Shown in pieces: positions 4,623-15,490 of a stretch of 15,490 nucleotides of DNA. Location: positions 1 to 15,490 of IMG/VR virus record IMGVR_UViG_2693429774_000004. One strand, 5' to 3'. Below the pieces are notes generated by a model that did not search any database, had not been told where the DNA came from, and saw nothing but the letters and a program-made list of their open reading frames with translations. The stretch is from a virus (lineage: Duplodnaviria > Heunggongvirae > Uroviricota > Caudoviricetes). Positions within the stretch are counted from its first letter, which is position 1, and every line of letters starts with the position of its first letter. The position numbers were made by a program, and so were the translations under genes.

Positions 4623-5174
4623 ATGAAAACACTTATCGTTTCAACTGTATTGGCATTCATAACATTTTCTGCGCAGGCTGCAGCATTTCAGGTCACTAGT
4701 AATGAAATAAAAACAGGAGAGCAACTTACAACGTCTCATGTCTTTTCTGGATTTGGGTGTGAAGGTGGTAATACATCGCCCTCATTAACCTGGTCTGGTG
4801 TTCCTGAAGGTACCAAAAGCTTTGCCGTAACTGTATATGATCCAGATGCACCTACAGGCAGTGGTTGGTGGCATTGGACTGTTGTTAATATTCCAGCAAC
4901 AATAACATATTTGCCCGTTGATGCAGGGAGACGTGATGGAACAAAACTGCCGACTGGTGCTGTTCAAGGCCGAAATGATTTTGGCTATGCTGGGTTTGGT
5001 GGCGCATGTCCTCCTAAAGGAGATAAACCACATCATTACCAGTTTAAAGTATGGGCTCTAAAAACTGAAAAGATTCCTGTAGATTCTAACTCCAGCGGAG
5101 CGTTAGTTGGTTATATGCTTAATGCTAATAAAATCGCAACCGCTGAGATAACACCAGTTTATGAGATAAAGTAG
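4623..5174 (+). CDS. ybcL: Periplasmic PEBP/RKIP-family protein YbcL with signal peptide
   Basis: 183-aa ORF with N-terminal signal peptide (MKTLIVSTVLAFITFSAQAAA) and PEBP-like core (VTVYDPDAPTGSGWWHWTVVNIP...HHYQFKVWAL). Preceded by GAGG. Confidence 0.9.
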   Translation: MKTLIVSTVLAFITFSAQAAAFQVTSNEIKTGEQLTTSHVFSGFGCEGGNTSPSLTWSGVPEGTKSFAVTVYDPDAPTGSGWWHWTVVNIPATITYLPVDAGRRDGTKLPTGAVQGRNDFGYAGFGGACPPKGDKPHHYQFKVWALKTEKIPVDSNSSGALVGYMLNANKIATAEITPVYEIK

Positions 5175-5183
5175 GGTGAGAGT

Positions 5184-5981
5184 ATGCTGGCAAGAGGTAA
5201 GACTAACTTAAAGATCGAAGAAATACGGATGCATAAACATCATGAGATTCATAGGGTTAAGCCTCTTATGCCAGCTTTGTGTCGTATCCGTCAGGGAAAG
5301 AAAGTTATCAATTGGGAGACGCATACTTTAACTGTTGATAATAATCAAATAATATTATTTCCTTGTGGTTATGAATTTTATATTGAGAATTATCCTGAAG
5401 CAGGGCTTTATCTTGCAGAAATGCTTTACTTACCCATTGATTTAATTGAGAGTTTCCAAAAACTTTATACGGTAACTGATCAAATACGTAACAAAACAAG
5501 TTTCTTTTTACCTCAGAATCCTGAGTTAATATATTGTTGGGAGCAACTAAAAACATCTGTTTCCCGAGGCTTCTCAACTAAAATTCAGGAGCACTTAGCA
5601 ATGGGCGTTCTACTTTCGTTAGGAGTGAATCATGTTAATCATTTACTTTTATCATATAGTAAACAATCATTGATAAGTCGTTGTTATAACCTGCTGCTAT
5701 CCGAACCCGGCACAAAATGGACAGCAAACAAGGTTGCTCGATATCTCTACATTTCTGTTTCTACATTACATCGCCGTCTAGCAAGCGAGGGGGTAAGTTT
5801 CCAAAGTATACTGGACGATGTGAGGTTAAATAATGCGTTGTCTGCTATACAAACGACGGTAAAACCTATAAGCGAGATTGCCAGAGAAAATGGTTATAAG
5901 TGTCCTTCTCGTTTTACTGAAAGATTTCATAATCGTTTTAATATAACACCAAGAGAGATAAGAAAAGCTTCCAGAGAGTAA
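5184..5981 (+). CDS. ybcM: AraC/XylS-family transcriptional regulator
   Basis: 265-aa ORF with a C-terminal AraC-type double helix-turn-helix ([21 protein letters not shown]...[32 protein letters not shown]). Low-GC coding. Confidence 0.85.
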
Positions 5982-6045
5982 AAGTGTTTTAAGAAGGAGC
6001 AATTCTATCGATTTTGATTTTGGGAAATCAACACGGCATAATTAT

Positions 6046-6074
6046 GTCACCGGAGCCTGAACAACTCCGGTGAC
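6046..6074 (+). terminator. Stem-loop at the right boundary of the AT-rich island (possible weak terminator of ybcM)
   Basis: GTCACCGGAG (6046-6055) pairs perfectly with CTCCGGTGAC (6065-6074) around a 9-nt loop, followed by TTCTGCG, only a weak U-tract. Confidence 0.3.
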
Positions 6075-6097
6075 TTCTGCGCTAAACGGGGACGTTT

Positions 6098-6199
6098 ATG
6101 CGCACATACAATCCAAACTCTCTTCTCCCTTCACAGATGCAGAAATGCACCTGCAATTCTTTGCATCTAGCGTTTGACCTCTGCGGAGGTGAAGCGTGA
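6098..6199 (+). CDS. ylcH: Small 33-codon ORF upstream of and overlapping the ybcN start (possibly ylcH)
   Basis: ATG at 6098 to TGA at 6197-6199 ([33 protein letters not shown]). Stop overlaps the ybcN GTG start as GTGA. The name is from memory of a similarly sized K-12 ORF; coding status is uncertain. Confidence 0.3.
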
Positions 6200-6651
6200 A
6201 CCTCTCACAAGACGGCATCAAATTACATCGCGGCAACTTCACCGCTATCGGTCGGCAGATCCAGCCTTATCTGGAGGAGGGCAAATGCTTTCGCATGGTG
6301 CTTAAACCGTGGCGTGAGAAACGCAGTCTTTCCCAGAATGCACTCAGCCACATGTGGTACAGCGAAATCAGTGAATACCTCATCAGCAGGGGTAAAACGT
6401 TCGCCACTCCAGCTTGGGTAAAAGATGCTCTCAAACACACATATCTCGGTTATGAAACCAAAGACCTGGTTGATGTCGTAACCGGTGATATCACCACTAT
6501 CCAGTCGTTACGCCATACCTCCGATCTTGATACCGGAGAGATGTATGTCTTCCTGTGTAAGGTTGAAGCCTGGGCGGTGAATATTGGCTGCCACCTGACT
6601 ATTCCGCAGAGCTGCGAGTTCCAGCTGCTCCGCGACAAGCAGGAGGCGTAA
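6196..6651 (+). CDS. ybcN: NinB/Orf-family recombination protein (lambda NinB homolog)
   Basis: 151-aa ORF from GTG at 6196 with GGAGG 6 nt upstream. Central [16 protein letters not shown] region resembles the lambda NinB core. Stop overlaps the ninE ATG (TAATG). Confidence 0.85.
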
Positions 6652-12511: not shown

Positions 12512-12915
12512 AATGGTATGCCGAAAGGGATGCTGAAATTGAGAACGAAAAGCTGCGCCGGGAAGTTGAAGAACTGCGGCAGGCCAGCGAGACAGATCTC
12601 CAGCCAGGGACTATTGAGTACGAACGCCATCGACTTACGCGTGCGCAGGCCGACGCACAGGAGCTGAAAAATGCCAGAGACTCCGCTGAAGTGGTGGAAA
12701 CCGCATTCTGTACTTTCGTGCTGTCGCGGATCGCAGGTGAAATTGCCAGTATTCTCGACGGGATCCCCCTGTCGGTGCAGCGGCGTTTTCCGGAACTGGA
12801 AAACCGACATGTTGATTTCCTGAAACGGGATATCATCAAAGCCATGAACAAAGCAGCCGCGCTGGATGAACTGATACCGGGGTTGCTGAGTGAATATATC
12901 GAACAGTCAGGTTAA
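12370..12915 (+). CDS. nohD: Terminase small subunit Nu1 homolog (cos-binding), full length
   Basis: 181-aa ORF MEVNKKQLADIFGASIRTIQNWQEQGMPVLRGGGKGNEVLYDSAAVIKWYAERDAEIENEKLRREVEELRQ...GLLSEYIEQSG, essentially lambda Nu1, with a winged-HTH N-terminus. Confidence 0.93.
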   Translation: MEVNKKQLADIFGASIRTIQNWQEQGMPVLRGGGKGNEVLYDSAAVIKWYAERDAEIENEKLRREVEELRQASETDLQPGTIEYERHRLTRAQADAQELKNARDSAEVVETAFCTFVLSRIAGEIASILDGIPLSVQRRFPELENRHVDFLKRDIIKAMNKAAALDELIPGLLSEYIEQSG

Positions 12916-13135
12916 CAGGCTGCGGCATTTTGTCCGCGCCGGGCTTCGCTCACTGTTCAGGCCGGAGCCACAGACCGCCGTTGAATGGGCGGATGCTAAT
13001 TACTATCTCCCGAAAGAATCCGCATACCAGGAAGGGCGCTGGGAAACACTGCCCTTTCAGCGGGCCATCATGAATGCGATGGGCAGCGACTACATCCGTG
13101 AGGTGAATGTGGTGAAGTCTGCCCGTGTCGGTTAA
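12890..13135 (+). pseudogene. N-terminal 81-codon stub of terminase large subunit A
   Basis: [81 protein letters not shown] matches the lambda gpA N-terminus, then stops at 13133-13135 where homology ends. Start overlaps the nohD 3' end as in lambda. Confidence 0.85.
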
Positions 13136-13185
13136 CCGCGCTGACAGACAATACGCAGGGGGCAGCAGGTCTTGAGTTATACGAG

Positions 13186-14088
13186 GTGTATAACAACGGA
13201 TATCCAACAGCGTATGGAAATATCATTCACCTGAAAGGGATGACAGCCGTTGGCGAAGGTGAGTTACTCATCGGCTGGAGTGGTACAAGCGGTGCTCATG
13301 CTCCGGCATTTATTCGTTCACGACGGGATACGACCGACGCAAACTGGTCGCCGTGGGCGCAGCTTTACACCTCGGCTCATCCTCCTGCAGAGTTTTATCC
13401 AGTCGGTGCACCAATCCCGTGGCCATCAGATACCGTTCCGTCTGGTTATGCCCTGATGCAGGGGCAGACTTTTGACAAATCTGCATACCCGAAACTTGCA
13501 GTTGCTTATCCGTCAGGCGTGATCCCTGATATGCGTGGCTGGACGATTAAGGGCAAGCCCGCCAGTGGTCGGGCCGTATTATCTCAGGAACAGGACGGCA
13601 TTAAATCGCACACCCACAGCGCCAGCGCATCCAGTACGGATTTGGGGACGAAAACCACATCGTCGTTTGATTACGGAACCAAATCCACGAATAACACCGG
13701 GGCGCATACCCATAGTATTAGCGGGACCGCAAATAGTGCCGGCGCGCACCAACACAAGAGTTCCGGTGCATTTGGTGGCACGAACACGAGCATTTTCCCT
13801 AATGGTTATACCGCGATTTCAAATCCAAGCGCGGGGATTATGAGCACAACAAGCGGTAGTGGCCAGACTCGTAATGCAGGGAAGACATCATCAGATGGTG
13901 CTCATACCCACTCGCTGTCCGGCACTGCTGCAATCGCAGGCGCACATGCACATACTGTCGGTATTGGTGCTCATACGCACTCCGTTGCGATTGGCTCACA
14001 TGGACACACCATCACCGTTAACGCTGCGGGTAACGCGGAAAACACCGTCAAAAACATCGCATTTAACTATATTGTGAGGCTTGCATAA
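13186..14088 (+). pseudogene. C-terminal fragment of a side tail fibre gene (lambda Stf / T4 gp37-like distal domain)
   Basis: 300-aa ORF ending ...[14 protein letters not shown] like lambda Stf, with seven His-x-His motifs. No N-terminal tail-attachment region. The frame is open from about 13117; the track start at 13186 is GTG. Confidence 0.85.
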
Positions 14089-14669
14089 TGGCATTCAGAA
14101 TGAGTGAACAAGCACGGACCATAAAAATTTATAATCTGCTGGCCGGAACTAATGAATTTATTGGTGAAGGTGACGCATATATTCCGCCTCATACAGGTCT
14201 GCCAGCAAACAGTACCGATATTGCACCACCAGATATTCCGGCAGGCTTCGTGGCTGTTTTCAACAGTGATGAGGCATCGTGGCATCTCGTTGAAGACCAT
14301 CGGGGTAAAACGGTTTATGACGTGGCTTCCGGCGACGCGTTATTTATTTCTGAACTCGGTCCGTTACCGGAAAATGTTACCTGGTTGTCGCCGGGAGGGG
14401 AATATCAGAAGTGGAACGGCACAGCCTGGGTGAAGGATACGGAAGCAGAAAAACTGTTCCGGATCCGGGAGGCAGAAGAAACAAAAAACAGCCTGATGCA
14501 GGTAGCCAGTGAGCATATTGCGCCACTTCAGGATGCTGTAGATCTGGAAATCGCAACGGAGGAAGAAACCTTGTTGCTGGAAGCCTGGAAAAAGTATCGG
14601 GTGTTGCTGAACCGTGTTGATACATTAACTGCACCGGATATTGAATGGCCAGTAGCACCTATAGGGTAA
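14088..14669 (+). CDS. tfaD: Tail fibre assembly protein Tfa
   Basis: 193-aa [57 protein letters not shown]... near-identical to lambda Tfa from memory. ATG overlaps the stf stop (TAATG). Confidence 0.9.
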
Positions 14670-14754
14670 ATTCGTAATGATTACCTAAATACGTTATTCT
14701 TTTGTTAAAAAAGTGATTTTGCTATAGGTAGGGAGTATGTTCTTGGATTAAGAA

Positions 14755-14786
14755 TAAAAAATCGCCATGAAAGAGCTTCATGGCGA
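14755..14786 (-). terminator. Perfect 10-bp stem-loop with adjacent A6/T6 tract, terminator-like in minus orientation
   Basis: TCGCCATGAA (14762-14771) pairs with TTCATGGCGA (14777-14786) around a 5-nt loop. AAAAAA lies immediately upstream on the plus strand, which is a U-tract after the hairpin on the minus strand. Confidence 0.3.
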
Positions 14787-15418
14787 GTACATAAACGTAC
14801 AAAATGTGATGAAAGTAGAGTGGCGTAAGCCACTATATTAAGATATGACAATAGCGAAGAAAAGTAAATAACATTTCATGGACGTTTAATTGTTAATTAT
14901 AAAAACTAGAGTGCCCGATATTGTTTATCTTGCTTTAAAATAATGTACTCAAACCAAATTTTTGAGCTAAAAGCTCAAATAATATAAATGCAATAATAAT
15001 GTTTAATAAGACAATTAGCTTGCTTTGTATTTTCATTTCGGAATACTGTTAAGTAACTTTGATGACCCTAACAATAGATCGGAATTTTCTTAGAGTCAAT
15101 GGTCACTGTTTTTGCTTGCAAAGCAAATGTTTTGGTGGTTATAAGTTGTCTTAATATAGTCACGCATGCAACTTGTTCCATGCGGAGATTAAAGATTGGA
15201 ATATAACGCGAAGATGGAATTAAATTACATTTGCAATAATCAATTTATTATTACTCAATAATTACCGATATTATTATTGTAAATTAATCATTAGAGTGCA
15301 AAAAGAAATGTAACGGCAAAATAAGAGGACGATAGCTGAGAAAAAAGCGTGCTTTCCCAATCTGGGGCAAATCACGTCTGAATGACACCTGAAAACAGGT
15401 GGTAGCCTCAAGAAGGCT

Positions 15419-15490
15419 GGTGATGCTGCCAACTTACTGATTTAGTGTATGATGGTGTTTTTGAGGTGCTCCAGTGGCTTCTGTTTCTAT
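15419..15490 (+). mobile_element. IS1 left end (terminal inverted repeat and start of insA), truncated by the window edge
   Basis: GGTGATGCTGCCAACTTACTGATTTAGTGTATGATGGTGTTTTTGAGGTGCTCCAGTGGCTTCTGTTTCTAT matches the IS1 terminus as I remember it. insA appears to start at the GTG at 15474 (V/M-A-S-V-S-I...). Confidence 0.85.

Follow-up and report, generated by a model that had tools for sequence, protein, structure and literature searches.

A conserved region behind tfa in a defective DLP12-type prophage probably carries a YncL-like small gene and ends at an IS1-associated deletion

Morons of lambdoid phages, such as lom and bor of lambda, are autonomous units of a promoter, a gene and a terminator, placed among conserved genes. 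YncL (b4598) is a stress-induced inner-membrane protein of Escherichia coli K-12 with a length of 31 amino acids (aa), and its gene is located between patD and ortT. It is induced by heat and in stationary phase, and its production lowers the membrane potential, condenses the nucleoid and reduces protein synthesis, with a depolarisation described as sublethal (PMC12542507); YncL is also a substrate of RseP (PMC10470546). PatE, the AraC regulator z0321 of the O157:H7 prophage OI-8/CP-933H, is an activator of acid resistance (PMC10877973). Here we analysed a stretch of 749 base pairs (bp; positions 14670-15418) that follows the tail fibre assembly gene tfa in the virus record IMGVR_UViG_2693429774_000004 (Caudoviricetes), whose 15,490 nucleotides (nt) are called the window in the following. 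The stretch is probably a conserved accessory right-arm region of a lambda-like phage of the ev099/mEp332 type, now residing in a defective prophage, with a moron for a YncL-like small membrane protein inside and an IS1-associated deletion at its right edge.

From 14670 to the end of the window no complete open reading frame (ORF) of 60 codons or more is present, the longest ones encoding 52 and 48 aa, and the G+C content is low (0.318 for 14670-15418; tfa 0.483, whole window 0.441). Both features had been described in an earlier reading of the window's letters, the original prediction, which proposed a decayed remnant of genes normally found to the right of tfa. This proposal did not hold, as ev099, mEp332 and PhiR70_1, which are IS1-free phages, contain all 749 bp in collinear order from one end to the other (98.8-99.5% identity) and as a small gene apparently under purifying selection lies inside. 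A search in complete E. coli genomes revealed that 280 of them carry at least 80% of the stretch. It is composed of three segments (Table 1). Segment A follows tfa also in Qin-like (ydfJ), Rac-like (trkG) and sit-adjacent (sitABCD) prophage remnants, and the homology of these copies stops at ~15247.

For Segment A, 36 distinct copies from 57 loci were aligned; their identity to the window ranges from 75 to 100%. On the minus strand, an ORF of 33 codons is intact and of equal length in 36 of the 36 variants. Comparison of the window with L011, the most diverged copy of Segment A, showed 11 synonymous and 7 nonsynonymous differences in this ORF and a ratio of nonsynonymous to synonymous differences per site (pN/pS) of 0.16; the corresponding values for L042 and L043 are 0.05 and 0.06. 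Variable columns fall mostly on third codon positions (13), followed by first (8) and second (2) positions. Judged by these substitution patterns, the ORF behaves as a real protein-coding gene under purifying selection.

The predicted peptide matched a single one of 18,950 NCBIfam models, namely YncL (NF000537; E 1.3e-5; model positions 1-28 of 30). Two natural variants reproduced this match, and none of 8 shuffled sequences did. BLASTP against K-12 YncL aligned 28 positions with 11 identical and 18 similar residues (E 2e-7). Both proteins consist of a short basic N-terminus and one hydrophobic helix, followed by a K/R-F-G motif. The grand average of hydropathy (GRAVY) of the phage peptide is 1.51, and its best 19-residue hydropathy window reaches 2.54 versus 2.15 for YncL. 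In contrast to YncL, the phage peptide has 33 aa with a different C-terminal tail, and its gene is located in a phage accessory region behind tfa. From its sequence the peptide is best read as a paralogue or relative of YncL and not as an equivalog. A location in the membrane and a depolarising action would follow by analogy with YncL.

The module is present in 828 of 5426 complete E. coli genomes, and the small gene is annotated in none of them, nor in 4 phage records. Because its score lies below the equivalog cut-off of the YncL model, the Prokaryotic Genome Annotation Pipeline (PGAP) never annotates it. Scanning 1.84 billion representative proteins with HMMER revealed only the peptide itself and one variant of 43 aa, both unnamed, and among ~15 billion proteins the gene has been called in just 3 sequences, belonging to two unnamed clusters. 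In species-representative genomes, searched with an exact 22-nt core (21 specified bases), the module is absent outside E. coli as far as this core can tell; 6 core matches in Vibrio and Clostridia share nothing beyond the pattern and are due to chance. A tblastn search of phages with the 33-aa peptide retrieved no match and missed even the identical copies in ev099, presumably owing to the low-complexity filter. A literature search with sequence strings gave no match.

Upstream of the gene a sigma-70-like promoter is predicted (Table 1). The variant with 75% identity has an unchanged -35 box and a -10 box of TATCGT, in which the key T, the A and the final T are kept. Five promoter-like sites of this quality were found in the scanned region, versus 3.9 expected by chance. 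A promoter for a leaderless mRNA just upstream of the ATG was considered as well and rejected, as it is not conserved in L011. Further candidates were discarded likewise: the minus-strand ORF of 37 aa from 15181, which is annotated in PhiR70_1, the plus-strand ORF of 35 aa from 15099 and the minus-strand ORF of 48 aa from 14851 all contain stops or frameshifts in diverged variants, and a terminator-like hairpin at 14979-14961 lies inside the small gene, has a broken stem in L011 and is attributed to chance.

Table 1. Features of the stretch and its borders; differences are those of the single window-L011 pair.
Feature	Position	Strand	Differences from L011	Remarks
tfa, tail fibre assembly, 193 aa	14088-14669	+		left boundary of the stretch; PHROG 105, E 1e-99; relatives annotated as tail fiber assembly protein
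Segment A, tfa-linked module	14670-15247			~95.5% identity over query 1-578 in many genomes
Spacers	14670-14744, 14876-14934, 15101-15140		37-45%, with indels
Structured RNA block	14745-14838	-	7%	most conserved block; candidate 3' untranslated region (UTR) element or ~85-nt small RNA (sRNA); from conservation and fold
Rho-independent terminator, leftward	14752-14786	-		10-bp stem 14762-14786, 5-nt loop, then UUUUUUAUUC (14761-14752); terminator scan and fold
33-codon gene	14935-15036	-	18%	ATG 15036-15034, TAA 14937-14935; MKIQSKLIVLLNIIIAFILFELLAQKFGLSTLF; predicted YncL-like single-helix membrane protein
ORF leader and promoter	15037-15100		19%
Predicted sigma-70-like promoter	15071-15099	-		TTGACT-17 nt-TATTGT, 28 nt upstream of the gene; consensus scan, 9/12 match
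Third island	15141-15215		12%	44% in the adjacent spacer
Segment B, very AT-rich linker	15248-15333			G+C 0.256; only in ev099-type arrangement
Segment C, 85-bp element	15334-15418			at right ends of many lambdoid prophages beside tRNA-Ser attR; 93-100% matches, query 665-749 only
IS1 left end, cut by window edge	15419-15490	+		inverted repeat 15419-15441; insA GTG at 15474; 100% identical to IS1A copies
550 bp of ev099, part 1				~110 bp, AT-rich, att-arm-like
550 bp of ev099, part 2				3' half of a tRNA-Ser gene
550 bp of ev099, part 3				~290 bp matching the chromosomal flank of that tRNA gene in 5423/5426 genomes
550 bp of ev099, part 4				~100 bp contiguous with the regulator module in O157

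The highest conservation within Segment A was found to the left of the gene, in a block that contains the perfect 10-bp stem at 14762-14786 (TCGCCATGAA/TTCATGGCGA) already noted in the original prediction, and further hairpins at 14787-14800 and 14819-14834 adjoin this stem. A T-run follows the stem only on the minus strand (TCGCCATGAAGCTCTTTCATGGCGA TTTTTTATTC), which identifies a leftward terminator rather than a plain palindrome. Nine of the ten base pairs of the terminator stem are invariant in 12 distinct variants. Read 5' to 3' on the minus strand, the first element of the block is a hairpin (AGUGGC-UUAC-GCCACU; 14834-14819), from which a single-stranded linker rich in U leads to a GUAC hairpin at 14800-14787 and then to the terminator. 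The folding energy of an 89-nt segment is -27.1 kcal/mol, compared to -10.1 +/- 2.6 for shuffled sequences (z -6.6). Two one-sided changes in the stems give G.U pairs in the minus-strand RNA and mismatches on the plus strand.

We prefer to read this block as a conserved 3' UTR and possibly as the source of an sRNA, an assignment based on conservation and predicted folding. With ~85 nt, a 5' stem-loop, a U-rich single strand and a strong, U-tailed terminator, it resembles Hfq-type and 3'-UTR-derived sRNAs, including Esr41 and DicF of prophages; unlike these, the candidate lies outside all Rfam families. No threshold of a family in Rfam 15 was reached (MicC 22.8/90, Aar 20.3/60 and Esr41 15.6/102 bits), and the only match above threshold nearby is IS009 (RF02111), within tfa. 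RNA interaction by ligation and sequencing (RIL-seq) has listed chromosomal yncL as a target of KilS, an sRNA from the 3' UTR of kilR of the Rac prophage (PMC8175672), which is another link of prophage RNAs to YncL-type genes. The third island harbours an inverted repeat CGCATG-N10-CATGCG (15163-15184), and no ORF survives there in the variants. The changes that variants carry in this repeat seem to fit better with an RNA from the plus strand or with a site for protein binding.

From this arrangement we infer a leftward moron. Transcription would start at the sigma-70-type promoter (15099-15071) and proceed through the 33-codon gene (15036-14938), ~100 nt of poorly conserved spacer and the RNA block (14838-14745) to the terminator (14786-14752), which would keep the transcript from entering tfa in antisense orientation. 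The conserved block may act as a stabilising or regulatory 3' UTR, or an sRNA may be released from it. The translated peptide would, by analogy with YncL, insert in the inner membrane, lower the membrane potential and alter the physiology of the lysogen.

Like the morons of lambdoid phages, the module is found between the tail-fibre genes and the att/int end, has a low G+C content (0.30 versus 0.48 for tfa) and is patchy in presence, as it is absent from O157 Sp1 despite a shared right-hand module and occurs behind tfa in four prophage contexts. A recombination breakpoint coincides with its boundary, since the chimeric L043 joins the L011 type to the L042 type with the breakpoint at the terminator. 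The module has a clear intrinsic terminator of its own, and the candidate promoter is a 9/12 consensus match. Unlike in known morons, the cargo is small, comprising a 33-codon gene and a non-coding RNA block, and expression from a repressed prophage is a prediction. The stretch is empty in every annotation, yet it holds a small gene with a clear coding signature and a conserved RNA element. If expressed, the gene would represent a phage-borne copy of a micro-protein of the host stress response, and the module would add to the small-protein and sRNA cargo that escapes gene callers. The YncL-like gene with its RNA tail is a modest addition to the known small membrane proteins and phage morons.

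Several points weigh against the leftward moron. The main weakness of the gene call is that no recognisable Shine-Dalgarno sequence precedes the 33 codons, in contrast to yncL, which has one. The match to the YncL model scores 25 bits versus a curated equivalog cut-off of 35 and extends over ~28 residues of a peptide that is hydrophobic. Compensatory changes are absent from the hairpins, since their sequences hardly vary, which makes covariation uninformative, and the conservation of the RNA block could result from recent recombinational exchange in mosaic phages instead of selection. A candidate promoter for a separate sRNA (TTTACT-17-TATCTT) loses the first base of its -10 box in 4 of 16 distinct block variants.

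A more far-reaching interpretation, possible if rather doubtful, is a two-part tfa-linked module, in which a YncL-paralogous depolarising micro-protein is combined with an Hfq-type sRNA, made from the 3' UTR or from a promoter of its own, and which retunes the membrane potential or the stress state of the lysogen. If this were true, lysogens would be retuned in ~15% of sequenced E. coli, for example towards tolerance or exclusion of other phages.

We consider it improbable that the stretch is a functionless spacer, a piece of b-region 'junk' conserved through shared recent ancestry or recent recombination. Such a spacer would agree with an identity of 93-100% among most copies, with the phage mosaicism evident from the L043 chimera, with hairpins that lack covariation and with a gene that has no Shine-Dalgarno sequence and is annotated in 0/828 genomes. 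It explains neither that within the single window-L011 pair islands with 7-18% differences stand next to spacers with 37-45% and indels, nor the 11 synonymous to 7 nonsynonymous differences and the strong third-position bias of the ORF, which are not producible by recombination alone. Three further ORFs, comparable in size, are disrupted in these variants, and the match to the YncL hidden Markov model is specific and missing from shuffled sequences, both of which speak against a functionless spacer.

At the right edge of the stretch, the IS1 terminal repeat GGTGATGCTGCCAACTTACTGAT begins at 15419, as the original prediction had stated, and IS1 sequence reaches the end of the window (72 nt), which holds just the first 17 nt of insA (from 15474). 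The region to the right of the window edge was read from relatives. Three complete genomes match the window with 99.7% identity from 743 to its end, and the last 821 nt of the window have an exact match in many more genomes. In the relatives L001, L002, L005 and L007 the element is a complete IS1A of 768 bp, ending ...GAGTCATTACC, and relatives are annotated with an 'IS1A family transposase, programmed frameshift' (insA-insB', -1 frameshift). In the relatives IS1A is followed by 206 bp, a 247-aa AraC-family gene, IS3-family fragments, attR and ybhB.

The 9-bp sequences on both sides of IS1 in these relatives, AAGAAGGCT and CTTATTGGC, differ, so that the target-site duplication which the original prediction suggested to look for is missing. 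This points to a deletion or recombination event and does not call the identity of the element as IS1 into question. Between ...AAGAAGGCT and CTTATTGGC..., ev099 has exactly 550 bp (Table 1), and IS1 takes their place in relatives whose sequence extends beyond the window; the AraC gene is 757 bp away in IS1-free phages versus 975 bp with IS1. The tRNA-Ser half-gene within the 550 bp is one that we take to be serU, and ARAGORN detected no complete tRNA in this segment. The left junction is unbroken in L003, a prophage integrated at this tRNA-Ser gene, and the right junction is unbroken in O157 Sp1. Because both junctions are continuous in these prophages, we take the IS1-free order to be the ancestral one, from which 550 bp were lost in the IS1 allele. 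The alignment of the stretch to IS1-free relatives from end to end, which the original prediction had linked to a simple insertion of IS1, was thus obtained, but the insertion is no simple one.

The exact IS1 junction was found in at least 79 and the IS1-free arrangement in 101 complete E. coli genomes; the fetched IMG/VR contigs comprise 12 with the IS1 junction and 7 IS1-free ones. Carriers of the junction include the complete lambda-like prophage of strain 104 and a defective DLP12-like hybrid resembling the window. The rearrangement of the right arm that the original prediction had suspected is therefore confirmed, whereas its restriction to one strain is not, given the number of genomes and contigs and the different prophage backbones.

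Further IS1 end-points were detected at this locus. L007 shares the right junction but has another left flank. In L005 (isolate F404; 5632-6399) 631 bp of the stretch precede an IS1 copy, whose right end meets the regulator ORF near codon 13; for this ORF a shorter AraC protein of 235 aa is annotated. L005 represents a further IS1-associated deletion, which probably inactivated or re-started the regulator. These other end-points and left flanks indicate that IS1 acted repeatedly at the locus.

The replacement of the 550 bp would go back either to an adjacent deletion promoted by IS1 or to two IS1 copies that recombined, both of which produce the same outcome. The locus resembles described events of these kinds in having a complete 768-bp IS1, unduplicated flanks, a defined adjoining segment of 550 bp that is gone, and other end-points nearby; it differs in that a simple-insertion intermediate with a 9-bp duplication is missing. 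Searches with synthetic sequences representing such an insertion, at either junction, found none in the 5426 genomes, so that direction and mechanism of the deletion are what we infer. It likewise tells against our reconstruction that the window ends 72 nt into IS1, and the layout proposed further to the right is a transfer from relatives. The IS1 event itself is routine, ordinary biology.

Segment C contains hairpins at 15386-15401 and 15404-15418, the second of which ends exactly at the IS1 junction, and in L003 and ev099 the segment runs on as TGGAATATTC... into the 3' half of tRNA-Ser. An ORF of 55 aa, annotated in ev099 across Segment C and the IS1 site, was rejected as a gene, as it belongs to no PHROG family and homology to other prophages ends within it. 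The right arms of ev099 (L010, 5750-6299), L008 and L009 hold the 3' half of tRNA-Ser and ~290 bp of bacterial flank. This host DNA in the ev099-type right arm is a relic, either because a past excision was imprecise or because the phage recombined with a prophage integrated at that tRNA gene.

The AraC regulator gene, which lies outside the window, is YdeO-like by NCBIfam. Its product is identical in 246 of 247 aa to ECs_0287 of the O157 Sakai prophage Sp1, and the same IS3-family remnant follows both genes. Given the correspondence of Sp1 to OI-8/CP-933H, the gene is very probably patE; ECs_0287 would equal z0321, as each is the AraC regulator of the same prophage. In contrast to patE of O157:H7, the gene here is found at att-lambda and has IS1 in place of the native upstream 550 bp. 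IS1 would thus now lie 206 bp upstream of a patE-type AraC gene, where 550 bp of ancestral phage sequence used to be. One IS1 allele, in which 550 bp directly ahead of the gene for an acid-resistance regulator are gone, has apparently spread to at least 79 sequenced E. coli in different prophage backbones.

The original prediction had also considered the stretch as the upstream regulatory region of a gene displaced by IS1. In a loose sense this was borne out, as an AraC gene starts 206 bp past IS1 in relatives; the stretch is, however, not the native control DNA of this gene. A long AT-rich control region of the patE-type gene, silenced by H-NS and uncoupled by IS1, is accordingly very unlikely. 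In O157 Sp1 the same regulator (246/247 aa) and the same ~640 bp upstream occur with no similarity to 14670-15418, Segment A follows tfa in prophages without such a regulator, and in IS1-free phages the tRNA-Ser relic and captured chromosomal DNA separate the stretch from the gene, which marks a junction of separate modules. These findings outweigh the AT-richness (0.318 G+C), the position upstream of the regulator with matching orientation, which holds for IS1-free phages as well as for relatives across IS1, and a consensus promoter-like site at 15224-15251 that is directed rightwards. Least likely of all is a type I toxin-antitoxin pair with the 33-aa peptide as toxin and the hairpin-linker-terminator RNA as antitoxin sRNA, for while the size and hydrophobicity of the peptide (GRAVY 1.51) are like those of type I toxins, production of YncL depolarises the membrane (PMC12542507) and the gene adjoins an RNA of ~85 nt that is structured, highly conserved and sRNA-like in architecture, the candidate RNA is encoded on the same strand and hence not antisense, its best duplex with the 5' region of the mRNA (-17.9 kcal/mol) equals the shuffle mean of -18.1 with 243/500 shuffles as good, a separate promoter for the RNA is doubtful, and the depolarisation by YncL is described as sublethal (PMC12542507).

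The window as a whole is a defective lambdoid prophage of the DLP12 type with ybcK, ybcM, a porin gene, lysis genes, nohD, a terminase fragment, the C-terminal part of a side tail fibre gene and tfa. The closest complete genomes have this prophage at att-lambda, with ybhC on one side and ybhB on the other. At 12890-14088 the fragment of the terminase large subunit almost abuts the C-terminal part of the side tail fibre, which is annotated as partial in L002. One deletion apparently took out all head genes and most tail genes, which renders the prophage defective. No single complete genome was found that combines the exact left and right ends of the window: positions 1-742 are outside the matches of the best full-length relatives, which begin at 743, and other genomes cover the window from 76 or from 1, ending at 13134.

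Within tfa, Rfam RF02111 'IS009' matched in full length at 14431-14629 (+) with 227.9 bits versus a gathering score of 117. This suggests that RF02111 describes a conserved piece of tail-fibre-assembly genes or pseudogenes and no independent RNA gene. In the left arm of the relative L002, in a part outside the window (4980-6490), a SecB-like chaperone gene lies beside an MqsA-family antitoxin gene, a layout reminiscent of tripartite toxin-antitoxin-chaperone systems.

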